A stretch of DNA of 15,258 bases from Deltaproteobacteria bacterium (GTDB taxonomy: Bacteria > Myxococcota_A > Polyangia > Fen-1088), in the NCBI GenBank assembly GCA_033763315.1, contig JANRKS010000025.1, forward strand, positions 1-15,258, in the 5' to 3' direction. This document shows, piece after piece, positions 1-14,100 of this stretch. Every line of letters starts with the position of its first letter. Within the stretch, counting starts at the first letter, position 1. The notes under the pieces were generated by a model. The model saw nothing but the letters and a program-made list of their open reading frames with translations. It had not been told where the DNA came from and ran no database searches. Position numbers and translations under genes: made by a program.

Positions 1-2900
1 TCGTAGCTCCTCCAGCAGCATGTCGCCAGCGCGCACGTAAACCGCGCTGACAGCTCCGCTGCCGCCCACCTCGGCCACGATGTGGCTCAAGCCACCGTGT
101 GTATCAACGACGAAATCCGTCACGACAGCAGCGCCGCCGCCTGCGGGCGTCACCGACGTGCGCACCAACACGCCGTCAACGTCATACGTATTCTGCACCA
201 CCGTACCGTCGGCCTTCGTGACCCTCACCAGCCGGTCTTCAAAGTCCCATTCGTACGCATCACCTGTGGGTCGCTGCGTTTGGTTGCCGTTTACATCCCA
301 CACGTATGGCTGTGCGTTTTCCGTCAGCAAACGTTGCCGCTCGTCGTAGCTATAAGCCACGTTCGCAGCGCCCGCCCCCGTGGTCACCTGCGAGCTACGG
401 TTGGATACTGCGTCGTAAGCAAACGTCTTCGTGTATTGCGGCCCACTGCCGCCGCTCACACCCTCGCCCACCAAACGCCCCACGTCGTCGTACGCGTACG
501 CCCTCACCGTGCCATCAGCTTCCGTGATGGCATCACGCAAGCCGCTGGCACCCAGTGTGTACGCATAGCTTGCAATCGTGGTGTCTCCCGCCACCTTGAA
601 CGTACGAATGTTTGTGAGGCGGCCACGGTTGTCGTGCGTGTAACTCGTCTGCACGCCGTTTGGCCGCACCAACGTTGCCAGCATCCCCTGCGCATTATGG
701 CTCATCGTGAACGCACGGCCCGCTGGGTCGGTGACACCCACCATGCGGCCCGCGCCATCGTAGCCGTACGTGGTGGTGAACACCTCAGCCCCGACCTTCG
801 CCGTCAGCGTTTCCTGACGGCCAGCGGAGTCATACGTGTATTCAACCTTGCGTCCCGCAGGATCTGTCTTCCGCAGCAACCGCTGGCTGTTGTCGTAGTC
901 ATACGTCGTGGCGCCCGCGGTGTTCGTTGCCGTCAACCTGCGGCCCATCACGTTGTAGGTGAACGCCACTGACGTGCTATCGGGATACGTACGCAGCGTT
1001 TGCCGGTTGTTCACGTCGTACGCATACGTCGTCACACGGCCCTGGAAGTCCTTCCGCGAAGCCACGTTGCCGGCCGCATCGTAGGTGCGCTCTTCAAACG
1101 CTCCATCGGGCAGCACGCGCTTTGTCTCGCGGCCCATTCGATCGTATTCGTAGTGTGTCGTGTGATTGGCAGCGTCGGTGGTGGCGATGCGGTTGCCCAC
1201 TTCGTCGTATGCGTAGCGGGTCACGTTCAAAAGCGGATCCGTCACCGCCGTCAGTCGACCAAGCTCGTCGTACGTATAGGTGGTGGTCTTGCCACGCTCA
1301 TCCGTTTGCGACACCTCGCGCCCCAAGAAGTCGAACACGCTTGACCGCGTGCTGCCACCCGGATTCGTCACAACCGTGGCGTTGCCCGTTTCATCCAACG
1401 TGAACTGAGTGACCCCGCCAAGTGCGTTCGTCTCCGAAACCTTACGCCCCGCCACATCGTAACCCGTCGACACAACCGCCCCCGAAGCATCCGTGCTCGA
1501 CGTCTGCTGCCCAGCCGCATCGTACGCAAACGTTGTGGTGCCGCGCCCGCTTTGGAACGACGCCACCACCCGTCCTGCCCCGTCGTACGTTGATTCGGAA
1601 TACGTGCCGTCAGGCCGCGTGGTGCGCAGCAAGCGGCCCACCTTATCGAACGTACTGCTGGTGGTTTGACCCGCCCGATCTTTGCGAGCCACCGCGCGAC
1701 CTTCGTTGTCGTAGGTTGTCTCGTCAAAGCTCCCGTCTTGATACGTCACCCTCGTCGCGCGGCCGTTGGTGTCATACGTGGTCGTGGTCACGTGGCCAAG
1801 TGCATCCGAAGACGTCACGCGGTTGCCAACCGCATCGTACGTGTAGTTGAGCTGCGACCCATCCGCCTGCACCACGCGCGTCTCCCGCCCTTGCCCATCG
1901 TACGTGTGCGTGGTCGTCAGCGTTTCGGTGCCCGCAGAAGTGGTGCGCGTGCGCACTTCCGTCAACGGCCGGTTGTTGGCGTCGTACGTGTATGTGGTCA
2001 CCCGCCCGAGAGCGTCCGTTTCGCTCGTCTTGTTGCCTTGATCGTCGTGCGCGTAGTTCGACACATGCCCCAACGCGTCCGTCATCTGGCGCATGTTGCC
2101 CAGGAAGTCGTATAGGTACGACGTTGTTTGACCCGGCCGTGGCCCCACCTGTGTCAGCAGGTTCCCTTGGACTGAATACGTTGACGTCGTCACGTTCCCC
2201 AGCGGATCTGTCGTCGTCAACACTTGGCCAAAGCCGTTGTATGTGTGCTCCGTCCGGTGACCCAGCCCATCCACTTCAGCCGTGACGTTGTCACGCGTGT
2301 CGTATTCATACTGCCGCGTGCGCCCGCTACCGTCGGTTTCCGAAAGCACGTTGTTAAGACTGTTGTAGGTGCGCAGCGTCTCGTGGCCTTCGCCATCCAC
2401 CTCGCGCACAACGTTGCCGCGTTCATCGAACCACAAGGTCTTCGTATACCCATTGCGGTCGATCACCGTTTCTTTGCGGTTGTCCAGGTCATGCGACAAC
2501 GAAATCGCGTGGCCCAGGGAATCCGTGGTGGATATGAGGCGCCCATCAGCATCGTAGTCGTGACGAATCGCGCGCACCCCTCGCGCATCAATGATGTCGC
2601 GCAGGTGGTGAATGCGCTGGCTGTCGTAGGCAAACCGCGTTTCATTGCCTTCACGATCTGTGAAGCCGGTCAGGTTGCCATCGGGATCGTATTGGTAAGC
2701 GTTTCGCTTGCCCATCGGATCCACAATGCCGGTGATCCGGTTTTCCTCATCGCGTTCAAACGTAATGCTCTTGCCAGATGAATGCGTGATGCCGTGGGCA
2801 TCGAAGGTCAAAGAATTGCCATTGCGGTCTGTAATGCTTGTGAAGCCATCGAACTGGTCGAACTCAAGTACGCGTCCATCTTGCAATGTCAAGCGATAGC
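1..2900 (-). repeat. RHS/YD repeat region of the giant ORF
   Basis: Many YD-type repeats, e.g. TYDAAGNVASRKDFQGRVTTYAYDVNNRQTLRTYPD (~975-1086), AYQYDPDGNLTGFTDREGNETRFAYD (~2625-2700) and YEWDFEDRLVRVTKADG (~205-255). Confidence 0.93.
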
Positions 2901-5900
2901 GGCGCGGATCAAACGGCTCGAAATCACCGTCGCTTCCGCTCCACAGCTCATAGCCGCCGCTTTCGCCTGGCTGAACAAACACGTCGCCGCCTGACACCAG
3001 CTCAAGCTTTGAGTTTGTTCCAGGTTTGGCAGCGAAACCGATGGTGACGAAATCCGGTGGCGAGAAGTACTCGCACGCATCAGACACCGTGGGCTCAAAC
3101 TCATGCATCCGGCCTTCCGGCGTGATAACCGTGACCACAAGCTTGCGGGCGGGCTGCACGCAGTAACGCGGCAGGAAGCCTCCCGTGCTGGCAGCGCCGA
3201 AACCCTTTCCGAGCACCGCGTTTTCGTAAACCCGCACGCGGTTCACGTCCAGGGTCCATCCGTGACCGAAATCGCCCTTTTGCGTATTGCGGCTGTCATA
3301 GCTGCGCAGAATTTGAATCGGCACGCCAGCCATAGGTACGTTGAGATCATCGAATGTGAGTGCCACGTGGCCAAGCTTCATCTGGTCTTTCACCAGCAGC
3401 TGCATCAGCGCCTCCGCCGAACGTCCCGCCGTATCGGTGGCCGCCAAGCGAATGTCATAGATGCCATTTTCAAGCAGTGTCGGGTCGAACTTAGCCAGCA
3501 CACCCGACAACGGCGTTGAACCCGTTGCGAACGTGGACCACTCGGCGCCCGGTGTGGTTGGACGCATCTCCAAACGCCAAGCGCTAAGAGTGCTGCTGGT
3601 GACGCTGCCTTCAAGGTTGGTAGGCGCCGTGACCACCGACAAATCCAGCGGCGAGCTGAACGCGACCGTGGGCGCCGCACCTGTGGCGGCTTGACCCGAC
3701 ACAACCACCTGCGTGTCATCAAAGGCGGACTGCTGGCCATCGTGCGCCGTGAGGCGCAGCGTGTACGTGCCCACTTCTTGGAATGTGGCTGTGGTCACCG
3801 CAGCCAAAGCGTTCGCGAAGGCGACAGGCCCCGGGCCCGAAACAAGCGACCAGCGAGCCACGGGTGTCGAGCCCGCCGGCTTGCCATCGTCACCGATTGT
3901 GCCTGCGAGCAGAGCCGTGCGGCTCGGCAACAACACGGATTGTGATGGGCCAGCGTCGATGATTGGTGCCAGGTTGCCGGGCAAAACGATCACCGTGGTG
4001 TCGTCCTGCGATGAAGCGAGGCCGTCTCCCACAACAAGCCTAAAGGTGTACGTTCCAGCAGAAGCGAACGTGACCACGGTGCTAAGCGCGTTAGGTTGAG
4101 CGATGGACGCAGGAAACCCGGACGTCTGGGTCCACTGGAAATGCAGCGAGTCTGACGGAATGCCATCATCTGTGGCTGAACCGGCAAGCACGACCTTGCC
4201 CGCGCCTGGAACTTCTGTTTGCTTGTCGGGGCCAGCACTGATGACCGGCGGCTGATTGTCGGCGACCACTCGTACGGACACCGTGTCAACGGCCGACGCA
4301 AGGGTGTCGCTGACCAACAGCTCGAACACATAATCCCCTTCCAAAGCCAGATCTACCGCTGCTGCTGCAGAGTCGTAGCCCAATACATTGACGAACGTCG
4401 GGCCTGAGACTTCACGCCACTGATATCTCAATTCACCTGAGGGCAGCCCGTCATCTAATGCACTCCCGGCAAGCAGGACGTGTGTACCGGGGGATACCGT
4501 CACGTCTGCGCCCGCGTTCACAGATGGGGGAACATTCTGGCCGTTGAAGCCAACGAATACGATCACGTCATCGCTCGACGAGGCCTCACCGTCACTGACA
4601 GCAAGGCGAAGGATATATGTGCCCGCAACCGGTAGAACGACGCTCGTTGAAAGACCGTTTTCGTTGCCAAAGCGCACGCCTGCGGGGCCGGAAATCACCG
4701 ACCAGGTGGGTAGCAACGTACCATTTTCGGGCAAGCCATCGTCTGTGGCTCGGCCAACCAAAGTGAGAAGGTTCTGCGGCCAGGAGAGTTGGATATCAGG
4801 TCCGGCGGACACCGCGGGAGCTGCGTTTGGCCCGAACGCTTCAAAGACCTGGACCACAGTGTTGTCGCTGCCGAAGCGCTCGCCGTCATCGGCAATCAGC
4901 TGCAGAGTATACTGCCCTGGCGAGCTGAACGTCACATCTGTGGCAAGGGACTGAGGTGCACTGAATGTAGCGGTACCCGGGCCCGCAATTTGAACCCAAC
5001 GAAGCACGAGCCCATTCGGGGGCGTAAGATCGTCTGTGACTGTTCCTGCAAGATGTGCAGTTAGCACAGGTGCTCGCGTGTTGAGGTCGGGCCCCGCGTT
5101 AACTACGGGAGCTTCATTGTTGGGTTGAACAACGACCTGAACCGAGTCTGTCGACTCGAGCTCACCATCCGTTGCCGCAAGCGAAAGAACATATGTGCCT
5201 GCTTGGGTGAAGATAGCGAGAGGCGAGACATTCGCGGGGTTCGAGAAAGACACCTGGCCAGGCCCCGTCGCCGTCCAGGATTGACTCAAGTAACCCCAAG
5301 GAAGGCCGTCGTCGACGACGTACGCGCGATCGAGCGATACAGCCGCTCCGCTGAATGAGAGCCGCACGTCATCAATTTCGAGGTCGTTCACCGGTCCGGT
5401 GTTTATATGGCTCTCAACAAATACATTGACCCATCTTGTGAAGCGCGGCACATGCAGACGAACCTTGTACCGCCCCCACCCCTGCGTGTACGCAAGCGGG
5501 CTTGAGGTGACCGTCCGTGCCGTTGATGTATTTGCTTCGTAGTTGAACTGGACCGTAACAACCGCGTAGTCGGGGTTCGTTTCGGGAGCCGTCCGCATGA
5601 CCAACTCCAGATCAACATCAACCAGATCTGCATCGACCAGCTGCGTCTTCTCGCCGATAGGTACACCTTGGAAAAGTGTGCCGTCTCCGCCGTCCGCGAT
5701 TCTATACACATCGCCATTTCTCAAGGCCTCTGTCGATGGCACCTTGTGCCAGTTGCCCGACACGGAACTCCAACCACGTTGCGATGTCCCCAGTGTCCGA
5801 AAAGCATCGACGATTTCATTGGCGCCCAACCGCACTGATATTGCGGGACCTGCTTCAACGTCAGGTGAATGGTTCGGACCTGTGGACGGAAGAACCGTGA

Positions 5901-8900
5901 CAACCAGGTCGTCGAGGCCACGCTCTTGGCCGTCAAAAGCCGCAAGCTGCAGGCGGTAGACACCCGGCGCAGGGAAGATGGCCGTGGTGGCTGGCGCTGT
6001 CGGATCAGCAAAGATCACCTTTTCGGGTATCGTCCCGCTCGACCAGCGATAGGTTAGCCCTGTGCCCGGCACGCCATCGTCGGTGGCGACGCCCGCAAGA
6101 GCGACGGAGTTATTGGGCAAAGCGATGGTTACATCTGATCCAGCAGATACCACAGGCGCCTCATTGGAAACGGCGCCCACTGATACCGTCGCTTCATCAA
6201 AGCGGCTCTCGACGCCGTCAGACGCTGTGAGGCGGAAAACGTATTGGCCCGGTTGAGGAAAGGATATGATGGTTTCAAGTTCGGACGGTTCCTCAATGTT
6301 GGCGGTTGCAGGCCCAGATGTTTGAGTCCAAACATGAGTCATCACGCCACTAGGCAACTGATCGTCCACCACGGTGCCAATCAATCTCACCGAGGCGCCT
6401 TCGGTTGGCTGATATACACCCATGCGACCGCGAGGCTCCACGTCGTTTAGGAAGCGAAACAAGCGGGAGGCGGGATCAGCGGCATCGACTGCATTCAGCG
6501 GCAAAGCACCGCAGAACATGAGCCAGGAAACGGAGTTGAACAGGAAGTGCTGTGATGAGGGCGCAAGCGCCGCGCACGAGCTGCCATAAGTCGACGTGCC
6601 GTCGATTTCAAATCCGTACCGCTTGAGAAAGGAACTCCAGACTGATGACTCTTCGGCTGGCGAATAAAACCCAGTCCCCAGGGTCAGGAAGACGTTGCCA
6701 CCCAAAGCGACGTAGGCATTCAATGTGTCGATATACTGCGCGTCGAGGTCGCCTACGAACAGGCCGTCGTAGGTCAACAGGCTTTCGAGATCTTTGCCAG
6801 AGCCATCAGAAGGCGACCATTCGTGCGAGTGCCCCGCCAAAGCCAGGGCCGCATGAAGCTCTTCACCATGGGGCCATTGGGGACCCGTTTGGAAGTCAAG
6901 GAATCTGCCACCACCAGCTGGAGCAAAGTAGTTGGCCAGATTCACAGCAAATTCCGCTCCGGATACACCCGGGGAAAAGCCCTGATTTGAAAGAATCCAT
7001 TCATCCGAGTCGACGACAACTTTTCCCCGCCCCGAAGCGTTTCGTACAAAGGCACGTTTATCCACACCCGCATCAACCTGGGGGGGCTGATTGGAAGGAG
7101 CCACCTCAATGGTGGCTTCATCAGAAGCTGACGAATAGCCGTCGGTCGCCGTGAGCTTCAAGACGTAGCTCCCAGGTGCAGAAAACGTCACGGTCGTGGC
7201 CGGAATAAACGGCTCCGTAATGGTGGCTGTGCCCGGTCCGGAAACAACAGTCCACTGCACAGACGCAAATCCAGCGCTGTTAACTACAGTTCCCGAAACG
7301 TTCGCTTGCATTGACGGCGTCACAACGTCAGGTCCGGCGTTGACAAGCAACGGCGGCTTGGCCGTTCCATCTACCGTGAAGCTAACATCGTCGCTCGATG
7401 TGAATTCTCCGTCCGAGACCGTCAACCTCAGAACATAAGTGCCCGGGTTTGGGAAACGGACGTTCGAATGGACGTCGTGCGGATTGTCGATGGCTGCGGC
7501 ATTTGCAGGGCTGACGTCTGCCCATGTAATGGACAAGCTTGCACCGATTGGCTGACCATCATCTCTGGCCACACCTTGCAACTGCGTATTTAAAGCATAG
7601 AGGTAACGATCAGCACCGGCGCTTGCGATGGGCGGCGCGTTCATAAATGAGTCGTCGTTCACGATCGTCGCAAAAGCCTCGGACCGAATGAGGCTGGCAC
7701 CACTAGTCTGTGACAAAAGCAACCCGAAAGATTCGTCGGATTCAATCGCAAAATCAGAATTGATCGTGACCTCAACCGTGGTTTCCCAGGCTCCCGCCAC
7801 AATCGTCGCCGTCCCGTTTGTCGGGACATAGTCGCTGCCCGCTGTCGCCGTTCCATCTTCAGTGGCGTAGTTGACGGTCACAGGATGAACGCTTGGCGCC
7901 GACAAACGAAGGTGAAACACCGCCTTCAACGGCGACGCGCTGTCTTCCACCACTGACACATCGTTCACAGTGAGCGACGGATCGCCTGTTCTAAAGTCGA
8001 AAAGGCGCCCGCCATTTTCCGCACCTTGGTTGTCGCGGGCGACCACACGCCAAAAATACCGTGTGTCATCGATGAGAGAGCTGGCATCAAAGTGCGCGCT
8101 GGCCGCATTCGCAGACACCGTCGAAAGCGTGCCAATGGCGTTGCCCATCGACCATAGATCGGCCTGCGGCGTTGTGCTTGCTTGGCTGTCCACACCACCA
8201 AAGACAAGCAATCGGTTGCGGTTAGCAGAATAGGCCGCCACGTGCCCAAGCCGCTGCGCAGGTGAGGCTTCGCTCGCTGCCTGCACCCTCGTCCACGTGG
8301 GTGCAGCCGCATTGTTCAAGTTCAGCAGCCAACTGTCCTTCAGGCCGATGCTGTCATTGTTGACCACGGCGCTGCTGCCACCATGAACCAAAAGCCGCCC
8401 AGCTACAGGTTCGAGTGACAATGAATGCCCCCACCGCCCTGCAGGGCCTACGCCGCTGATGTTGAGCTTTTGCCACGTGGGAGTTCCAGAACGACTGGCG
8501 GCGCCATTCAAAACCCACACATCAGATAGAACAGTTCCCGTCGCCGATCGACCTCCGAAAAGGTAAAGGCGATCCGCTGCCGCATCGTAAGCCAAGGCCG
8601 CGCTCGCTCGTGCTGCAGGCCGGGTGCCTGCCACTGCAAGAGGCTGCCAGCTGGGCGTTCCGCCACCCGCAACGTTGTTGAGCACCCACACATCATTCGT
8701 TGGCAAGCTGGCCGCCTCTGGAATGCCACCAAACACGATCAGTTTGTGAGACACCTGATCGTAGGCCGCCGCGTGTTCACGCAAAGCCACGGGAGAGGCG
8801 GGCAGCGCGGTCCACGCTGCGGGTCCCATGCTTAGACCTGTCACAACTTTCGCGTCTGCCAGGGATGAAGCGCATGTGCCGGCACAGCCACCATGAATCA

Positions 8901-10395
8901 CGAGCGCCTGCGCCGACTCATCGAAGGCTGCCACCGCGAATTTGCGTGCAGAAAGCGCAGAGCCAGCAGGCACGATCGTTTGCCAGAAGGCGCCTTGTCC
9001 CACGGTGGTTGCGTTGTGAAGCACGCGCAGATCGGCCACTGGCCCCGCCGCCGTTTGCCCACCGAAAATGAACGCACGATCCGTGTCGTCATCATACGCC
9101 GATGCGGCAAAAGCGCGGCCCACCGGTGCGCCCGTGGCACCACACTGAGGTTGCCACGTTTGCCCATTCGTCGTGACAGCGGTGCCCAACTGCACATCAA
9201 AGGTCAGCGGCTGGCTTTCGGGATCAGATGCCGTCCACGCAATCGTGGTTGCGGCAGGCAAACCGGACGAGCCCATGGCAGGCGATCGTGATGATGGCAC
9301 GCTGGGCGCTTCGTTCGGCTCGTCATCGTCGATGATGAGGCCCGTGGCGTTTGCTTGCCCTAACGTGGCGCCAACAGCTTCTCCCAGTTGAACAAAGAAC
9401 TGCTTATCTGGTTCGGGCACCAGATCACCAAACACAGGCACGGAGAATGTTTGAACGGTTTGGCCAGGCGCAAAGGTGATCACGGCACCACGACGAAGGT
9501 AATCACAACCAGCCACCGCGCTGCCGTCCACCGTTTGCGCGGCCACCGTCACTTCATGATCGGACGCGAGCGAAAGCGACACATTGAAGTTCGCAGTCGT
9601 TAGTCCCGTGCTGCCTTCGGCAAGCGTGACATTGCCAACGCTAACCGTAGGACCTGATGGCGCTGTGACAGTGACGGACACGTCAGCAAAAGCAGTAAGC
9701 GCAGAATCGCTTACCGTCACGCGGACCACATACGATCCGGCGGCCCGAAAAAAGGCGGAGGTGCTGTTCGCGTTCGGGCTCACAAAGTCAACCACGCCGG
9801 GACCACTCACCAAAGACCACGCATAGGCCAACGCCGAGCCGGCTGGCAGCCCGTCATCAGTGGCGGTTGCCGTCAGCAAAACATCGGCACTGACCGCAGC
9901 CGTAGAAGGCGTGGCCGTCGCAGTGACGGTCGGCGCAACGTTTGTCGGACAACGTGTTGAGTTCGAAGACGCCGTTGACGTCCGCGGCCCAAGCTTCCAC
10001 ACAAGGTTCGAGCCGTTGAAGGCCACCGTGAACACATCCACGTGTCGCCCCGGCGCAAACAGCACAGGTTGCCCCCGATCGAGCGGCGAAGGAGTGAACT
10101 TGTTGTTCGCCCCCACGGGCACGCTCACCGAGTCAGTGACGGTGTTCAAGTATCCGAAGTGCGCCGTGTATTGCCCCGGCCCATCGGCGGTGACGCACTC
10201 TAAGATCGGGCGCAGCAGCGACGCATCGGTGAGGAGCGCTTGACTTGAATTAAGGTCCGCGTGATCGGGCGGTTCGCTGCACCCTATGCCTAACGAGGCA
10301 AGCGAAATAACACATAGCGCTGAGAAGGCTCTCGACCATTCATGCGCGAAATATTCCGCGCCCGACCGCATCATCACACCAATTGGACTAGCCAT
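1..10395 (-). CDS. Giant secreted RHS/YD-repeat protein with PKD/Calx-beta/Kelch stalk (3' end outside window; at least 3465 aa)
   Basis: One minus-strand frame (codon starts at multiples of 3) reads without a stop through the stretch I translated continuously (10395 to ~3240) and in spot checks down to base 1. The track lists no terminated ORF in this frame. It begins MASPIGVMMRSGAEYFAHEWSRAFSALCVISLASLGIGC, with GGGAG ~8 nt upstream of ATG 10395; alternative ATGs are at 10374 and 10371. At the window edge it reads ...TYDVDGVLVR...DFVVDTHGGLSHIVAEVGGSGAVSAVYVRAGDMLLEELR, typical of the late RHS core. Confidence 0.93.
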   Translation of the reverse strand, partial: MASPIGVMMRSGAEYFAHEWSRAFSALCVISLASLGIGCSEPPDHADLNSSQALLTDASLLRPILECVTADGPGQYTAHFGYLNTVTDSVSVPVGANNKFTPSPLDRGQPVLFAPGRHVDVFTVAFNGSNLVWKLGPRTSTASSNSTRCPTNVAPTVTATATPSTAAVSADVLLTATATDDGLPAGSALAYAWSLVSGPGVVDFVSPNANSTSAFFRAAGSYVVRVTVSDSALTAFADVSVTVTAPSGPTVSVGNVTLAEGSTGLTTANFNVSLSLASDHEVTVAAQTVDGSAVAGCDYLRRGAVITFAPGQTVQTFSVPVFGDLVPEPDKQFFVQLGEAVGATLGQANATGLIIDDDEPNEAPSVPSSRSPAMGSSGLPAATTIAWTASDPESQPLTFDVQLGTAVTTNGQTWQPQCGATGAPVGRAFAASAYDDDTDRAFIFGGQTAAGPVADLRVLHNATTVGQGAFWQTIVPAGSALSARKFAVAAFDESAQALVIHGGCAGTCASSLADAKVVTGLSMGPAAWTALPASPVALREHAAAYDQVSHKLIVFGGIPEAASLPTNDVWVLNNVAGGGTPSWQPLAVAGTRPAARASAALAYDAAADRLYLFGGRSATGTVLSDVWVLNGAASRSGTPTWQKLNISGVGPAGRWGHSLSLEPVAGRLLVHGGSSAVVNNDSIGLKDSWLLNLNNAAAPTWTRVQAASEASPAQRLGHVAAYSANRNRLLVFGGVDSQASTTPQADLWSMGNAIGTLSTVSANAASAHFDASSLIDDTRYFWRVVARDNQGAENGGRLFDFRTGDPSLTVNDVSVVEDSASPLKAVFHLRLSAPSVHPVTVNYATEDGTATAGSDYVPTNGTATIVAGAWETTVEVTINSDFAIESDESFGLLLSQTSGASLIRSEAFATIVNDDSFMNAPPIASAGADRYLYALNTQLQGVARDDGQPIGASLSITWADVSPANAAAIDNPHDVHSNVRFPNPGTYVLRLTVSDGEFTSSDDVSFTVDGTAKPPLLVNAGPDVVTPSMQANVSGTVVNSAGFASVQWTVVSGPGTATITEPFIPATTVTFSAPGSYVLKLTATDGYSSASDEATIEVAPSNQPPQVDAGVDKRAFVRNASGRGKVVVDSDEWILSNQGFSPGVSGAEFAVNLANYFAPAGGGRFLDFQTGPQWPHGEELHAALALAGHSHEWSPSDGSGKDLESLLTYDGLFVGDLDAQYIDTLNAYVALGGNVFLTLGTGFYSPAEESSVWSSFLKRYGFEIDGTSTYGSSCAALAPSSQHFLFNSVSWLMFCGALPLNAVDAADPASRLFRFLNDVEPRGRMGVYQPTEGASVRLIGTVVDDQLPSGVMTHVWTQTSGPATANIEEPSELETIISFPQPGQYVFRLTASDGVESRFDEATVSVGAVSNEAPVVSAGSDVTIALPNNSVALAGVATDDGVPGTGLTYRWSSGTIPEKVIFADPTAPATTAIFPAPGVYRLQLAAFDGQERGLDDLVVTVLPSTGPNHSPDVEAGPAISVRLGANEIVDAFRTLGTSQRGWSSVSGNWHKVPSTEALRNGDVYRIADGGDGTLFQGVPIGEKTQLVDADLVDVDLELVMRTAPETNPDYAVVTVQFNYEANTSTARTVTSSPLAYTQGWGRYKVRLHVPRFTRWVNVFVESHINTGPVNDLEIDDVRLSFSGAAVSLDRAYVVDDGLPWGYLSQSWTATGPGQVSFSNPANVSPLAIFTQAGTYVLSLAATDGELESTDSVQVVVQPNNEAPVVNAGPDLNTRAPVLTAHLAGTVTDDLTPPNGLVLRWVQIAGPGTATFSAPQSLATDVTFSSPGQYTLQLIADDGERFGSDNTVVQVFEAFGPNAAPAVSAGPDIQLSWPQNLLTLVGRATDDGLPENGTLLPTWSVISGPAGVRFGNENGLSTSVVLPVAGTYILRLAVSDGEASSSDDVIVFVGFNGQNVPPSVNAGADVTVSPGTHVLLAGSALDDGLPSGELRYQWREVSGPTFVNVLGYDSAAAAVDLALEGDYVFELLVSDTLASAVDTVSVRVVADNQPPVISAGPDKQTEVPGAGKVVLAGSATDDGIPSDSLHFQWTQTSGFPASIAQPNALSTVVTFASAGTYTFRLVVGDGLASSQDDTTVIVLPGNLAPIIDAGPSQSVLLPSRTALLAGTIGDDGKPAGSTPVARWSLVSGPGPVAFANALAAVTTATFQEVGTYTLRLTAHDGQQSAFDDTQVVVSGQAATGAAPTVAFSSPLDLSVVTAPTNLEGSVTSSTLSAWRLEMRPTTPGAEWSTFATGSTPLSGVLAKFDPTLLENGIYDIRLAATDTAGRSAEALMQLLVKDQMKLGHVALTFDDLNVPMAGVPIQILRSYDSRNTQKGDFGHGWTLDVNRVRVYENAVLGKGFGAASTGGFLPRYCVQPARKLVVTVITPEGRMHEFEPTVSDACEYFSPPDFVTIGFAAKPGTNSKLELVSGGDVFVQPGESGGYELWSGSDGDFEPFDPRRYRLTLQDGRVLEFDQFDGFTSITDRNGNSLTFDAHGITHSSGKSITFERDEENRITGIVDPMGKRNAYQYDPDGNLTGFTDREGNETRFAYDSQRIHHLRDIIDARGVRAIRHDYDADGRLISTTDSLGHAISLSHDLDNRKETVIDRNGYTKTLWFDERGNVVREVDGEGHETLRTYNSLNNVLSETDGSGRTRQYEYDTRDNVTAEVDGLGHRTEHTYNGFGQVLTTTDPLGNVTTSTYSVQGNLLTQVGPRPGQTTSYLYDFLGNMRQMTDALGHVSNYAHDDQGNKTSETDALGRVTTYTYDANNRPLTEVRTRTTSAGTETLTTTHTYDGQGRETRVVQADGSQLNYTYDAVGNRVTSSDALGHVTTTTYDTNGRATRVTYQDGSFDETTYDNEGRAVARKDRAGQTTSSTFDKVGRLLRTTRPDGTYSESTYDGAGRVVASFQSGRGTTTFAYDAAGQQTSSTDASGAVVSTGYDVAGRKVSETNALGGVTQFTLDETGNATVVTNPGGSTRSSVFDFLGREVSQTDERGKTTTYTYDELGRLTAVTDPLLNVTRYAYDEVGNRIATTDAANHTTHYEYDRMGRETKRVLPDGAFEERTYDAAGNVASRKDFQGRVTTYAYDVNNRQTLRTYPDSTSVAFTYNVMGRRLTATNTAGATTYDYDNSQRLLRKTDPAGRKVEYTYDSAGRQETLTAKVGAEVFTTTYGYDGAGRMVGVTDPAGRAFTMSHNAQGMLATLVRPNGVQTSYTHDNRGRLTNIRTFKVAGDTTIASYAYTLGASGLRDAITEADGTVRAYAYDDVGRLVGEGVSGGSGPQYTKTFAYDAVSNRSSQVTTGAGAANVAYSYDERQRLLTENAQPYVWDVNGNQTQRPTGDAYEWDFEDRLVRVTKADGTVVQNTYDVDGVLVRTSVTPAGGGAAVVTDFVVDTHGGLSHIVAEVGGSGAVSAVYVRAGDMLLEELR
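3241..3680 (-). other. Linker Ig-like domain plus DUF6531-like RHS N-terminal segment
   Basis: Translation ...LAKFDPTLLENGIYDIRLAATDTAG... followed by DLNVPMAGVPIQILRSYDSRNTQKGDFGHGWTLD. This matches the DL-x-IP...RxYxS...G-x-FG-x-GW motif that precedes RHS repeats. Confidence 0.8.
3700..7641 (-). repeat. Tandem array of 10 PKD/K319L-like Ig domains (two carry insertions); an 11th copy lies at ~9661-9935
   Basis: Recurrent ~90-aa unit N-x-[AP]-P-x-V-x-AG-x-D...L-x-G-x-x-x-DDG-x-P...W...SGP...F...G-x-Y-x-L-x-L-x-x-x-DG...D. Copies at about 7370-7641, 7100-7355, 6178-7092 (split), 5890-6165, 5128-5874 (split), 4845-5118, 4552-4827, 4264-4536, 3982-4257 and 3700-3975. Confidence 0.85.
7651..7980 (-). 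other. Calx-beta domain 2
   Basis: PSLTVNDVSVVE...VFHLRLSAPSVHPVTVNYATEDGTATAGSDY...IESDESFGLLLS...ATIVNDD is a canonical Calx-beta pattern. Confidence 0.9.
8140..9180 (-). other. Six-blade Kelch/galactose-oxidase-like beta-propeller
   Basis: Six repeats carry the GG doublet: AFIFGG, LVIHGG, LIVFGG, LYLFGG, LLVHGG, LLVFGG. Most are preceded by an R-x-x-[HA]...YD-like segment and followed by D-x-W and a W-x-x-L-like segment. Confidence 0.9.
9322..9651 (-). other. Calx-beta domain 1
   Basis: PTVSVGNVTLAEGSTGLTTANFNVSLS...TVDGSAVAGCDY...ITFAPGQT...VFGDLVPEPDKQFFVQL...ATGLIIDDD. Confidence 0.88.
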
Positions 10396-10427
10396 ACTGG
10401 ATTCTCCCTGGGTCTAGCGATACTGGA
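10385..10427. promoter_or_regulatory. 17-bp direct repeat flanking the putative RBS of the giant gene
   Basis: GGACTAGCCATACTGGA (10385-10401) and GGTCTAGCGATACTGGA (10411-10427) are 15/17 identical with a 26-bp period. The repeat is seen directly; the regulatory role is inferred. Confidence 0.5.
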
Positions 10428-10502
10428 ACAACCCAAAAAGAGTCAAAGAAGAAATGCTGTGTCACCTAATATTCACGTCTGGACATGCGCTAAGTCGCCG
10501 GG

Positions 10503-10586
10503 GTCATATATGACTTCTATGACTCGTGGCTATGACCTTTATGACTCCGGCGTATGACTTGTGCTGCGTTGCACCCGTCTCATACG
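10503..10586. repeat. TATGAC hexamer array (22-bp period) with inverted copies
   Basis: TATGAC starts at 10509, 10518, 10531, 10540 and 10553 (spacing 9,13,9,13). An inverted GTCATA at 10503 makes the palindrome GTCATATATGAC. CGTATGA (10551-10557) and TCATACG (10580-10586) form an inverted pair. Confidence 0.8.
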
Positions 10587-10623
10587 GAAAACATAACGTT
10601 GCGCCGGCGCCTCTTGACAACCC

Positions 10624-10870
10624 GTGATCAACGTCCTCGAACAGCTCGCGGTGGCGGGCACCCACAGACGGGGCCGCCACAAATGTCGCCTTTGCGCGAG
10701 ACGCCCGAACGGGAGCGATCGATTTGAAAGTCGAACGCCGGGTTGACCCGCATCTCTACGAACTGACGCAGCCTTTAGGTAGTGAGCGCGCTCCAAAGAA
10801 GGGCGGCCGTGGCGCCTCCACCAGAGCACGTGCTTTCAGGCTTACTCCTGTGCGGCAAGTGCGGCGTCAA
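10624..10870 (+). pseudogene. Frameshifted internal fragment of a large serine recombinase (end of recombinase domain plus start of Zn ribbon)
   Basis: Three collinear motifs lie in three frames. VINVLEQLAVAGTHRRGR starts at 10624 (cf. V-x-x-IL-x-NP-x-Y-x-G). AIDLKVERRVDPHLYELTQ lies at ~10715-10771 (cf. PAIVD-x-E-x-F-x-x-AQ). HVLSGLLLCGKCG lies at 10827-10865 (cf. Zn-ribbon motif LSGLL-x-C-x-x-CG). No catalytic resolvase domain is seen. Confidence 0.68.
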
Positions 10871-10987
10871 ATATCCACTCGGCCAAAGGTCAATCGATGT
10901 CGGCAGCACTCTTAGGGCGCGCGGGATAACTCGCCCACAACAAAGTGTGAACGCCCAAACCCTACCATCAGGGTGGCGGGGGAAAGG

Positions 10988-11752
10988 TCAACGCCAAACT
11001 GAGTGCCCTATCTTGCCAAGGAACGAAAGCGCCGTGGACAGATTCGACCAGATGGTCGAATGCTTCACAAAGGCGTCTAGGGAACTGCCCTCGACGATTT
11101 GGATTCGCCCATCTGCGCCGCCAGATGGTACGGGTTGGAATCGTGTGTTTGCTTCGCGCGAAGCAGGAGCCCCAGACTGTTCGTTCGTAGCTTTGGGTGC
11201 GGCGGCGTTTGGGTCGAGCCGATCGCGGCGGTAGGGAGCAGTCGCAAAAATTTCTTCGTAGCGCGTGTCCGTTACGATGAAAAGATCGTCGGGGAGCTTG
11301 TCGTACTCCGATGAAGCATCGGCTTCCGCGAACTGTCGAATACGTTCTATTTCGGAATCGATTCGCACGGCGATAGAAGCGAATGGTGTGTGACCAACTT
11401 CAGCGCTGCGGATCCACCTCGCCCATTCGAACCAATCCACCGGATTGTCTACCGGCACCAAGTGCCTAAAACCCAGCCGACATATTCGCTTCGTTGCGCA
11501 TTGGCCAAGCGTGCATAGCATCACCTGAAGACGTACACCTTGTTCAAGAAGATCTCGCACGTCCCACACGCCCTTCTCAAGGTCAAGAAGCGCGCCCGTC
11601 GTTGAATCCCGAATCAGGGCGGGATGATAGTGCAGGAACAGCTTGAAATAAGCGTTCAACGCGCTTTTAAACTCTTCGATCCGAGAGAGAACAAGGCGGC
11701 TTTGTTCAGACAGAGGGGTATCAGTGCTGCCGTGCGATGATTCCGAGGGCAT
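10988..11752 (-). CDS. Hypothetical protein (254 aa)
   Basis: Long ORF with globular-looking composition. ATG 11752 (MPSESSHG...) has GAGG about 8 nt upstream and is preferred over the track start at 11821. No family recognised. Confidence 0.7.
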   Translation of the reverse strand: MPSESSHGSTDTPLSEQSRLVLSRIEEFKSALNAYFKLFLHYHPALIRDSTTGALLDLEKGVWDVRDLLEQGVRLQVMLCTLGQCATKRICRLGFRHLVPVDNPVDWFEWARWIRSAEVGHTPFASIAVRIDSEIERIRQFAEADASSEYDKLPDDLFIVTDTRYEEIFATAPYRRDRLDPNAAAPKATNEQSGAPASREANTRFQPVPSGGADGRIQIVEGSSLDAFVKHSTIWSNLSTALSFLGKIGHSVWR

Positions 11753-12013
11753 GGCTAGATCCTCGTACCAATGGAGGTCCAGTGCAAGCACCTTTTGGCG
11801 GTGATTTTGAAGCATCACCAACTTCTTGAGTTGCTGGTTCTTTGTCTTTGCGCCTGTTGTCCAAAATCAAATCCGCCAAACGCCTTCGCTACCCGAGGCA
11901 AATTGGTTGAAGGCACTTTCGTGCCGCCAGCGGCACCTGCCGTCGCACCTGCGTGAAACGTTTCGGGCAAGGCCAATTTGAAGCGGGCGAGTGAACGAGC
12001 AATCATCGATCAC

Positions 12014-12508
12014 ATGAAGGCCGCCCGCTTGAGTCCAGAACTTCAGGCTTCGTTGCGCGACGCCATTGTGGCGGAGAGAAATGCCGACGCGGCGCTTGAT
12101 GCGCGACGTGCACACGTGGATCGTCTGCTTCAAGAGATGCGATCGAATGGCGTCTCATTTGATCGCATTGCGATCGAAGCGTTTAAGGCGCGGCGTGGAC
12201 GGCCGCCGCGTGCAAAGGAACGATTGCGCGAGCGTGCACGCCTTCGCCAACGCTACTGTCGCATGAAGGTGAAGCTGGGCGTGACGTGCGGTCACCGAGA
12301 TCCTCTGGCGACCACCGGTCAATCGCCGTCGGTTCACGTAGCCTTGGCAAGCAAGGAGTTAGCGAACATGAACGACCCACGATTGATAAAGCGGACAACG
12401 ATCGAAGAGACTTACACCACGTCAAGCAAGGCCAGCTTGGGCGACGCCGATCTTGGCGACGACGAACTGGACGATGTGGACGACGACGAGGACGAGGACG
12501 AGAGCTAA
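12014..12508 (+). CDS. Hypothetical helical protein with Arg-rich segment and acidic tail (possible DNA-binding protein)
   Basis: In-frame ATG at 12014 (track start is TTG 11978). Contains NGVSFDRIA (HTH-like), then RRGRPPRAKERLRERARLRQR, and ends DADLGDDELDDVDDDEDEDES. Confidence 0.65.
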   Translation: MKAARLSPELQASLRDAIVAERNADAALDARRAHVDRLLQEMRSNGVSFDRIAIEAFKARRGRPPRAKERLRERARLRQRYCRMKVKLGVTCGHRDPLATTGQSPSVHVALASKELANMNDPRLIKRTTIEETYTTSSKASLGDADLGDDELDDVDDDEDEDES

Positions 12509-12512
12509 GTCG

Positions 12513-12827
12513 ATGGGCCGCTCCGTAAGCAAAGCAACGGGGGCGTGGGTTATGAAGGAACCGACCAATGCCTGCGCCACCGTTGCTTGGGCCCGCACAC
12601 TCATCGAGGCCGGCTACCGCTACCCAAGGTCGAACAAGTGTTTGCTTGCATTGGGCTTGGTGGCGTCCACGATGCCGGCATTGGGTGACGGTGCGGCGTA
12701 CACGCGAGCCGAACGGCGGGCGCGTCGAAAGGGCTGCGCGAATGCCGTGGTTGCAGGCGCGCAGGAGGCGGCGGCCTTGCTGAGCCATGCGTGCGGCAGG
12801 CCCAAGCGCCCCAAAGCTAAACGATAG
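12513..12827 (+). CDS. Hypothetical basic protein (104 aa)
   Basis: ATG lies 4 nt after the stop of the upstream gene, which is operon-like spacing. Helical, basic sequence (YTRAERRARRKG). No family recognised. Confidence 0.5.
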   Translation: MGRSVSKATGAWVMKEPTNACATVAWARTLIEAGYRYPRSNKCLLALGLVASTMPALGDGAAYTRAERRARRKGCANAVVAGAQEAAALLSHACGRPKRPKAKR

Positions 12828-12854
12828 GCAGTCTATCAGGGCGGGAGGACCCTT

Positions 12855-12999
12855 CCGCAGGGGGGAGCTTTTGGCGGCCCCGCAGGCCAGGCGCATGGGG
12901 GAAACGATAGCGCCGCACCCTGCGCCCGCAGGGGGTGGACGCCCACGCCCGCAGTGTGCGCTCGTGTTGCAAGGTCGCCGAAGCCGCAGCCTACGCAGG
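12855..12999 (+). repeat. Cluster of CCGCAG motifs upstream of the HTH gene
   Basis: Exact CCGCAG at 12855, 12880, 12926, 12949 and 12984, with a near copy ACGCAG at 12993. Dyad CCCTGCG-CC-CGCAGGG at 12918-12933. Confidence 0.55.
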
Positions 13000-13029
13000 G
13001 GCCAACAGCGACCGAGAAAGTGGTCAGAG

Positions 13030-13731
13030 ATGAACCCAACTACAACCACAATGATCTTTGGCTGGCCCAGTATCGCCAAGACCCTGGGGCTTTCGGTCCG
13101 TCGGGCGCGCGAGATCGTCAGTGCGCGCGGCCTTATTGCCGAACGGCGCAACGACGGCGCCGTTGGCGTGCCTGCGCAAGCATTGCGCGCATTGGCAGAA
13201 GAGCTGGGTGACTGCCGTCGCGAAGATGGGGCTGTGATCGAAGGCGTTGCCGAGCCCCATCCTGAACATACGCCGACCTTGGAGGGCGATTTAGAACCGT
13301 CAGCCGAAGTTAGCCCACCAGCACTTGATGCCCGGTTGGCCAACGGAGGGTGTGACATTGACGACGAGGGCGAACGTGCACGCGACTTGAGTGCAGAACT
13401 TGATCGCCAATACTTGCTTATGGAACAGCTTGACGTTCGCATCCAAGGTGTTGCTCAACACAGTTCCACCGTGACAGCACGTGTAAATCAAACGGAGTCG
13501 CTGCTGTGGCAACAAAAGCAAAGCGCCGCTCGCGATCGTCAGTGGTTATGGGCGCTGAAAGCCGAAGTGCAACAGTTGCGCCGGCAAGTTGAAGCCTTGG
13601 AAGGCGCGCTAAGAGCCATGCCGATGGCGTTGGTGTCCACGGGCCACAAATGCGGGGCGTGTGGTGCCAAAGCACTGATGAGCCCGGTGGGTTGTGGCGC
13701 TTGTGGCCTTGGTATCGGACCAGGTCGATAG
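13030..13731 (+). CDS. HTH (excisionase/MerR-like) / coiled-coil / C-terminal C4 zinc-finger protein
   Basis: N-terminal IFGWPSIAKTLGLSVRRAREIVSARGLIAERRNDG resembles GW-x-x-IA-x-x-LG-x-S-x-R winged HTHs. An acidic Pro-rich linker is followed by heptads LKAEVQQLRRQVEALEGAL and C-terminal CGACGAKALMSPVGCGACG. Start is probably ATG 13030 or 13051 rather than 12787. Confidence 0.75.
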   Translation: MNPTTTTMIFGWPSIAKTLGLSVRRAREIVSARGLIAERRNDGAVGVPAQALRALAEELGDCRREDGAVIEGVAEPHPEHTPTLEGDLEPSAEVSPPALDARLANGGCDIDDEGERARDLSAELDRQYLLMEQLDVRIQGVAQHSSTVTARVNQTESLLWQQKQSAARDRQWLWALKAEVQQLRRQVEALEGALRAMPMALVSTGHKCGACGAKALMSPVGCGACGLGIGPGR

Positions 13732-13749: not shown

Positions 13750-14100
13750 CTACTTGCGGGCAGCCAACCGTTGAGCGACAAGCAGCAACGCTTTGACATC
13801 TGCGGCAGGCAGATTGAGCGCGATTTCTGCGAGGCGCTCCGCATCGTTAGCTGAACGCTTTTCGTCCGCTGTCAGGCGCGAGTCCGAAAACAGCTTCCAC
13901 ATCGGCTCGTCCAAAGCGCCGGCAATCCGCTCCAGCACTTCCAACCTTGCCTGGCGGGCGCCACCTTCGATCTTGACGAGGTAGCTCACTCCCAGTTCGG
14001 CGTGCTCTGCAAGCTGAAGCTGCGTCATGTCGTGCTGTAAGCGTAACTCCTGGATGCGCTTGCCAAGTCGCGTATTTAGGTTGGGTTTGGCCACTACCAC
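13750..14100 (-). CDS. XRE-family (Cro/CI-type HTH) transcriptional regulator with C-terminal helical extension
   Basis: LGKRIQELRLQHDMTQLQLAEHAELGVSYLVKIEGGARQARLEVLERIAGALD is a canonical HTH_3 pattern. Start is GTG 14100 or 14094. Confidence 0.93.
   Translation of the reverse strand: MVVAKPNLNTRLGKRIQELRLQHDMTQLQLAEHAELGVSYLVKIEGGARQARLEVLERIAGALDEPMWKLFSDSRLTADEKRSANDAERLAEIALNLPAADVKALLLVAQRLAARK

Follow-up and report, generated by a model that had tools for sequence, protein, structure and literature searches.

Contig JANRKS010000025.1 of a Deltaproteobacteria bacterium (GenBank assembly GCA_033763315.1) is 15,258 bases long, and all of it was analyzed and is called the window here. 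On the minus strand, starting with an ATG at 10395, lies a frame of 3465 codons without a stop (1..10395), which has not closed by position 1 of the window. The original prediction had claimed a single open frame of more than 3465 amino acids encoding an RHS protein, and the clean translation, with 3465 codons and no in-frame stop, agrees with it. At the stop expectation of 0.0335 per codon that follows from the base composition of the window, 3465 stop-free codons would arise by chance with a probability of ~1e-51. The longest other open reading frame (ORF) overlapping this region encodes 296 amino acids, and the sequence GGGAGA stands 7 nucleotides (nt) 5' of the start codon. The giant RHS gene is genuine but incomplete, and it is a new representative of an already described class of secreted RHS toxins. 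Because the contig stops at codon 3465, the 3' end of the gene falls off it, and neither a core-end motif nor a toxin tip or immunity gene is contained in the window. The protein had also been called hidden, a label that does not suit it, since it is already deposited in a public protein collection with its Pfam domains assigned, as a cluster of one member.

In RHS shells, a C-terminal toxin is enclosed and severed by self-cleavage; the C-terminal part of the frame encodes a plug followed by such a shell. The DUF6531 model of Pfam (PF20148) matched residues 2339–2385 with an E value of 6e-7 and 30.2 bits on the segment, compared to a cut-off of 24.1. The Pfam RHS_repeat family matched 16 stretches (E 1e-111), while NCBIfam contributed 11 stretches of TIGR01643 (YD_repeat_2x) and a partial match to RHS_core. 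The strict YD motif occurred 19 times between residues 2569 and 3302, leaving ~180 residues from DUF6531 to the first YD motif. The DUF6531-like segment and the YD repeats proposed from the sequence are thus both present, the former above its gathering score. When the shell was searched against PDB sequences, the best matches were the Rhs cores of type VI secretion system (T6SS) effectors, 8h8a and 7q97 (E ~1e-38), with weaker matches to the solved teneurin-like proteins (TLPs) 9ifo and 9pt5 (E 6e-22) and to teneurin-2 (~1e-8). In Pfam and NCBIfam scans of the giant protein, no PAAR, VgrG, Hcp, SpvB or NHL family was matched at E ≤ 0.01, in line with the earlier remark that the N-terminus is neither PAAR- nor VgrG-like.

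At its N-terminus, the protein carries a leader that ends in ...SLASLGIGC, a lipobox-like LGIG-C in which the Cys is residue 39. The n-region of this leader is long and contains Arg10 and Arg22, and the h-region, AFSALCVISLASLGIG, spans 16 residues; with the alternative starts Met8 and Met9 (nt 10374 and 10371), the Cys would become residue 32 or 31. Residues 29–39 fit a lipobox pattern in PROSITE style. Hydropathy reached its maximum, 2.0–2.2, across residues 23–26 of the leader, and the hydropathy scan found no second strongly hydrophobic 19-residue window elsewhere in the giant protein. In an alignment of the query with its seven closest N-terminal relatives (P0217, P0149, P0179, P0159, P0174, P0202 and P0138), the leader Cys was aligned in all eight sequences, closing a hydrophobic segment that is followed by a polar linker and the motif ...LLTD..L.(K/R)PVLECV. 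Six remoter N-terminal relatives (P0208, P0160, P0255, P0136, P0137 and P0184) instead have AxA-type signals abutting the same domain. Among the N-terminal relatives, P0159 carries DUF4215 and some are annotated as 'cysteine-rich repeat protein'. Judged from the sequence, the leader fits a lipoprotein signal with a signal peptidase II site, with good comparative support, and the lipoprotein-like leader ...LASLGIG-C of the original prediction is upheld by the lipobox pattern and by the Cys kept in all eight sequences.

A different N-terminus was seen in six other family members (P0006, P0016, P0026, P0032, P0065 and P0068). These share an unusual non-lipobox leader, in which basic residues precede LL..FG(I/L)(D/E/Q), and a first domain with the conserved motif LWPPNH...DEP..TGDG...DGRVYL, which together replace the lipobox and first domain of the query.

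The first domain of the query, of ~90 residues (~60–150), contains Cys67 and Cys149 and the motif PILECV...NNKFTP...GQP..F.PGR...LVWKL, which in relatives begins with PVLECV. A HMMER search with residues 1–160 recovered 3407 representative proteins at E ≤ 1e-3, and the domain was found across many kinds of surface proteins, often in two to nine tandem copies. It had no Pfam match and no PDB sequence match at E ≤ 1, and P0123, which has five copies of it, matched no Pfam family at all. This ~90-residue segment may represent an uncatalogued domain family.

Ahead of the RHS shell, a stalk of ~2300 residues makes up two thirds of the giant protein. A hidden Markov model (HMM) made from the protein's own repeats found 11 PKD domains, the last six of which form an uninterrupted row (1674–1756, 1767–1850, 1864–1948, 1961–2043, 2054–2137 and 2148–2232); Pfam's K319L-like_PKD matched 10 stretches. 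The block between the last PKD domain and the plug is putatively immunoglobulin (Ig)-like and is kept in all 13 rows of the family alignment A1. With the 11 PKD domains, two Calx-beta domains, the N-terminal domain, a split FN3-like domain and this block, the count comes to ~16 Ig-like sandwiches. The count of about 15 Ig-like stalk domains made from the sequence was therefore right; what it missed is that the stalk is not purely Ig-like, as three globular modules are set into it. Nine DDG motifs occur in the giant protein, and the Calx-beta and PKD stalk may plausibly be stiffened by Ca2+.

One of these three modules is a Kelch propeller at residues ~426–750, matched by Pfam Kelch families at E 2e-36 and showing six R..(A/H)xAxYD....L.VFGG blade motifs in the translation. 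Its flanks, 359–425 (TIAWTASDPE...TFDVQLG) and 751–805 (YFWRVVARD...FDFRT), read as though a single FN3-type sandwich had been divided between them; weak Ig-type matches fall at 755–800, and the Kelch/FN3 block is kept in alignment A1. From these motifs, a six-bladed Kelch propeller appears to be nested within an FN3-like sandwich. For the second module, residues 1099–1325, an AF2 model built from a six-row alignment (pLDDT 70) showed alternating strands and helices, and Foldseek returned only generic alpha/beta matches (TM ≤ 0.37). The leads from families are weak, namely ABC_transp_aux (E 0.031) and DUF4350 (E 0.14) in Pfam; TCAF_N, DUF4092, IFT52_GIFT and ThuA among Atlas neighbors; and IFT52 as the sole PDB profile match (E 0.29 and 0.6). 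They are mutually consistent, pointing possibly to a GIFT-like (GldG/IFT52) or GATase1-like module. The third, residues 1502–1673, was modeled by AF2 as all beta (pLDDT 76), and Foldseek matched the model to the sugar-binding domains of Fbs1/FBG3 (TMq 0.57–0.60, E ~3e-5) as well as to carbohydrate-binding modules (CBM16, CBM6, CBM61 and CBM22) and phage tailspike modules; Atlas leads were FBA and DUF642, each below 0.9. The model suggests a lectin-like jelly roll with a fold like that of carbohydrate-binding modules. The Kelch, alpha/beta and jelly-roll modules may all bind ligands. The coordinates of all features are collected in the table.

Table. Features of the giant RHS protein and of the DNA upstream of its gene, in order from the N-terminus of the protein; the upstream repeat cluster is given last.
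Feature	Residues	Position in window	Strand	Basis
Leader	1–39	10279..10395	-	Translation, lipobox pattern, conserved Cys in relatives
Polar linker and N-terminal domain	40–158	9922..10278	-	No Pfam model
PKD domain 1	159–243	9667..9921	-	Self-built HMM, E 4e-30; Pfam PKD_4 at 152–236
Calx-beta domain 1	~250–358	9322..9648	-	Pfam PF03160, best stretch 264–358
FN3-like sandwich, apparently split by Kelch propeller	~359–425 and 751–805 (propeller ~426–750)	7981..9321	-	Pfam, motifs
Calx-beta domain 2	~806–920	7636..7980	-	Pfam PF03160 (2 stretches in protein); NCBIfam caca at 836–897
PKD domains 2–3	926–1008 and 1020–1098	7102..7620	-	Self-built HMM, E 1e-31 and 3e-27
Alpha/beta module	1099–1325	6421..7101	-	AF2 model, weak family leads
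PKD domains 4–5	1325–1406 and 1418–1501	5893..6420	-	Self-built HMM
Jelly-roll module	1502–1673	5377..5892	-	AF2 model, Foldseek
PKD domains 6–11	1674–2232	3700..5376	-	Self-built HMM, E 7e-29 to 1e-33
Putative Ig-like domain ahead of plug	2233–2335	3391..3699	-	Weak Big_7 match, E 0.33
DUF6531 plug region	2336–2390	3226..3390	-	Pfam PF20148
RHS/YD-repeat shell	2391–3465	1..3225	-	Pfam, NCBIfam, PDB; cut by contig end
Cluster of six GTCATA hexamers		10503..10558	.	108–163 nt upstream of start codon

What lies beyond the end of the contig can be gauged from relatives. The nearest homologue, P0003 (3700 amino acids), is colinear with the query from query residue 92 to its last residue, with 1657 of 3393 aligned positions identical (49%) and 1% gaps. 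It extends ~305 residues past the end of the query, comprising the remainder of the core, which ends in ...NDPVLFVDSSG, and a 215-residue tip that had no match in a domain scan. A core end of the form ...RARWMDPxxGRF...DPxNxVDPSG, with an Arg and two aspartyl motifs of the DPxG type for self-cleavage, was present in all 14 full-length relatives; it was located by script in 12 of them and by eye in P0016 and P0027. The tips of the 12 extracted relatives are 174–242 residues long and mutually unrelated, and the consensus of the 13-row alignment A1 collapses directly past the core-end motif. Named toxin domains make up three of the tips: Aspzincin_M35 in P0016, a YwqJ-like deaminase in P0023 and RES in P0109. 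An architecture search among homologues had been proposed as a check on the original prediction, and the full-length relatives do end in an RHS core end followed by variable tips. Many of the variable tips, among them those of P0003, P0033, P0059 and P0032, open with a Gly/Ala-rich hydrophobic stretch of 40–90 residues ahead of the putative toxin domain, which may be a membrane-entry segment.

When genome contigs were searched with the giant protein alone as the query, no relative was found. An alignment-based scan with one genome per species gave 461 confirmed matches, of which the best 79 were listed. These come mostly from Acidobacteriota, with Myxococcota, Chloroflexota, Cyanobacteria, Verrucomicrobiota, Gammaproteobacteria and Bacillota among the other phyla, and the best-matching locus among those listed, at 44%, was L001 from a Myxococcales metagenome-assembled genome. 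The make-up of the stalk differs widely among family members, with FG-GAP, LamG, VWA and F5/8-C inserts. At L001 (1–12531), the encoded protein P0122 looks teneurin-like overall; by eye, its domain types are Cys-rich repeats, repeated LamG-like blocks, a propeller-like region, PKD domains and a YD shell. The stop of the P0122 gene is overlapped by 4 nt by an ORF of 143 amino acids. Two downstream ORFs that were scanned, at loci L001 and L061, matched no Pfam family.

Upstream of the giant gene, six of the 13 GTCATA matches in the window fall within 56 nt; 2.65 would be expected in the whole window, and none of 200 shuffles reached 13. Five of the six hexamers are direct on the minus strand with a spacing of alternately 13 and 9 nt, the last forms the palindrome GTCATATATGAC, and TRF reported a period of 22 for the cluster. 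The cluster is a candidate regulator-binding array, which may or may not belong to the giant gene. Further upstream on the same strand, at 13750–14100, lies a gene for an XRE-type helix-turn-helix regulator of 116 amino acids (Pfam HTH_3, E 4e-9; PHROG transcriptional regulators, E 8e-17), which was the sole PHROGs match among six neighboring ORFs; the GTCATA array and this regulator are possible partners. The ORF directly upstream of the giant gene (277 amino acids, 10988–11821, minus strand) had no Pfam or PHROG match. Between 11900 and 13750, the G+C content is higher (~0.63) and long ORFs overlap on both strands. There, an Arg-, Ser- and Pro-rich minus-strand ORF of 419 amino acids looks like the shadow of the plus-strand ORF 12787–13731, which has a weak winged-helix match (Rv2175c_wHTH, E 3e-5, below cut-off) and a coiled-coil-like tail; the plus-strand ORF 11978–12508 ends in an acidic tail. 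No Rfam family or tRNA was found in the window, and no sigma-70-like promoter at 10300–12000.

We then compared the giant protein with known systems that use RHS shells. WapA of the Gram-positive Bacillus subtilis is a Sec-exported, wall-associated RHS toxin that is anchored in the wall and kills neighbors on contact. It is smaller and is not known to have a stalk of PKD, Kelch and Calx domains. WapA is named as a delivered tRNase in the available part of PMC5566331. Another known class consists of very large Rhs proteins that bear signal peptides, of which Rhs4 and Rhs5 of Myxococcus xanthus (~4000 amino acids) act in kin discrimination without a T6SS, according to the available text of PMC10433427. 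Like the giant protein, these two have a signal sequence and YD repeats at a comparable size; theirs is a protein with a polymorphic C-terminal toxin, T6SS-free delivery and a proposed cell-surface site. The comparison is one of descriptions, and in the same text Rhs4 and Rhs5 are credited with signal sequences rather than a lipobox. Their genes reside on Mx-alpha prophages, whereas around the giant gene there is only the XRE-type regulator. Large Sec-dependent surface Rhs proteins, the class that PMC10433427 describes, are delimited by a length above 1500 amino acids and an N-terminal signal peptide; the present protein has at least 3465 amino acids and a leader. RHS repeats are also listed among polymorphic toxins exported by Sec and the type II secretion system (T2SS) in Table 1 of PMC3482391.

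Bacterial TLPs are defined in the available text of PMC13018210 by an FN-plug, an NHL propeller and a YD shell; diverse N-terminal adhesion domains are also reported there. The same text predicts the Myxococcota members of this group of YD-shell toxins to be Sec/signal peptidase II lipoproteins and gives no known delivery machine for the group. BiTLP (9ifo and 9pt5; PMC13018210, as far as it is described there) resembles the giant protein in its N-terminal adhesion domains and YD shell, and its tip is a short polymorphic C-terminal toxin. The shell of the giant protein does match 9ifo and 9pt5 (E 6e-22); this PDB match covers the shell only, and the plug region matches DUF6531 and no FN model. 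Unlike a TLP, the giant protein has no NHL propeller between plug and shell, its sole propeller being the Kelch domain ~1600 residues upstream. With the NHL propeller absent and only ~180 residues separating DUF6531 from the first YD motif, it is not a TLP, and T6SS Rhs cores match its shell better.

Two other assignments were likewise rejected. The giant protein has its DUF6531-type plug and its YD shell in common with T6SS Rhs effectors (RhsA, 7q97; Tse5, 8cp6; 8h8a), but the latter have a PAAR or VgrG-binding N-terminus and no signal peptide, whereas the giant protein has a hydrophobic lipobox leader, a 2300-residue stalk and no PAAR, prePAAR or VgrG-binding N-terminus at E ≤ 0.01. In the TcB–TcC cocoon of Tc toxins, an RHS shell surrounds a self-cleaved toxin, as outlined in the available text of PMC13018210; a Tc B/C subunit was rejected here, as domain scans of the giant protein and the window showed no SpvB, TcB-type propeller or TcA partner. 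A literature search on RHS giants with PKD or Calx-beta domains in Acidobacteria or Myxococcota found no paper on the present protein family, and this specific PKD/Kelch/Calx stalk family may be undescribed in the literature searched. The degree of novelty originally claimed was nevertheless too high, since Rhs giants with signal peptides and YD-shell toxins predicted as signal peptidase II lipoproteins are already in print, as the available parts of PMC10433427, PMC13018210 and PMC3482391 document.

Together, these results make it probable that the gene specifies the 3465 N-terminal residues of a giant T6SS-independent RHS polymorphic toxin that would measure ~3750–3800 residues in full. The precursor would be exported by Sec, signal peptidase II would cut ahead of Cys39, and the lipidated Cys39 would hold the protein in the outer membrane of its diderm host, possibly one of the Myxococcota. 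From there, the ~2300-residue stalk would project the shell, and the globular modules would bind glycans or proteins on a neighboring cell. The missing C-terminus would comprise, besides an aspartyl motif for self-cleavage, an encapsulated toxin of ~170–240 residues. This toxin would be freed into the target cell, while a small downstream gene would protect the producer. The original prediction of a Sec-exported, surface-tethered polymorphic toxin or adhesin is thereby sustained in part. An RHS toxin type that lacks adaptor domains for T6SS or Tc is supported, as are the lipobox leader and the long stalk; surface display, Ca2+ stiffening and any role in contact-dependent killing or in predation are putative.

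Several points weigh against this interpretation. By default, lipoproteins in diderm bacteria face the periplasm. Positions −3 and −4 of the lipobox are occupied by Gly and Leu, which departs from the textbook L-[AS]-[GA]-C, Gly at −3 being atypical; moreover, the lipobox Cys, counted from Met1, is at position 39, beyond the usual range. The C-terminus of the giant protein itself could differ from that of its relatives. As for a downstream immunity gene, a same-strand ORF of ≥80 amino acids starting between −30 and +60 nt of the stop was present at 43 of the 59 loci whose 3' end is complete and at 658 of 1180 random positions, a count that carries little weight because the random control sites fall inside long ORFs, which makes the control invalid.

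Other readings of the same protein have to be weighed. Two thirds of the protein consist of the stalk with its three putative ligand-binding modules, which would also suit a molecule that is primarily a receptor for cell–cell adhesion or recognition, with a teneurin-like social role in kin contact and with toxicity secondary or lost. The available text of PMC13018210 allows for a role of this kind in the YD-shell proteins that social bacteria carry, and the tip of the present copy lies beyond the contig end. However, the self-cleavage core end kept in all 14 relatives and their diverse tips form a pattern typical of conflict systems, three of the tips are recognizable toxins, and the NHL propeller that defines TLPs is absent; we consider an adhesive function of this kind unlikely. 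The toxin might instead be released and act at a distance, through outer-membrane vesicles or a T2SS-like pathway, given that a lipoprotein leader would place it in the outer membrane, the source of vesicles, and that Sec-dependent RHS toxins are grouped with T2SS export in Table 1 of PMC3482391. Against such release, no T2SS or vesicle-related gene lies within the window and contact explains a long multi-adhesin stalk more easily, so that action at a distance seems, if anything, slightly harder to credit than adhesion.

Two further routes concern how an RHS toxin might be handed over. In myxobacterial outer-membrane exchange, cargo is passed on in the manner of SitA upon TraA/TraB outer-membrane fusion, and the lipobox leader and a possible Myxococcota affinity would be in keeping with it; SitA toxins are lipobox-led polymorphic toxins in the available part of PMC5562445. 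There is, however, no sequence link to SitA, and neither traA nor traB lies within the window. Nor are SitA toxins known to resemble a ~380-kDa RHS protein that bears adhesin modules, which leaves exchange very improbable. The least credible of all is a T6SS or Tc-type RHS effector whose adaptor is encoded elsewhere. The shell is nearest in sequence to T6SS Rhs cores, but a lipobox signal of the cleavable type, a 2300-residue stalk of extracellular type and the lack of PAAR, VgrG and SpvB all argue against it, as does the absence of any T6SS or TcA gene from the window.

Beyond the preferred interpretation as a T6SS-independent polymorphic toxin, a more far-reaching proposal can be put forward only tentatively, as one that we hold to be doubtful. 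The giant protein might belong to an RHS lineage apart from TLPs, in which the T6SS-type DUF6531 plug and shell would have been kept while the place of the PAAR adaptor was taken by a lipid anchor and a stalk that reads receptors (an FN3-nested Kelch propeller, a GIFT-like module and an Fbs1/CBM-like lectin). Such a lineage would amount to a capsule displayed on a diderm, with glycan-guided contact delivery across two envelopes without known machinery, and the PVLECV domain would be its membrane-proximal base.

In soil Acidobacteriota, Myxococcota and other phyla, giant RHS proteins exported by Sec are common. No route is known by which they would pass the outer membrane and hand over their toxins, and the available text of PMC13018210 says likewise of TLPs. 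The giant protein opens no new category. What the present copy adds is a well-supported lipoprotein leader and specific candidate receptor-binding modules, which provide handles on how such proteins may be anchored and how they may recognize their targets.

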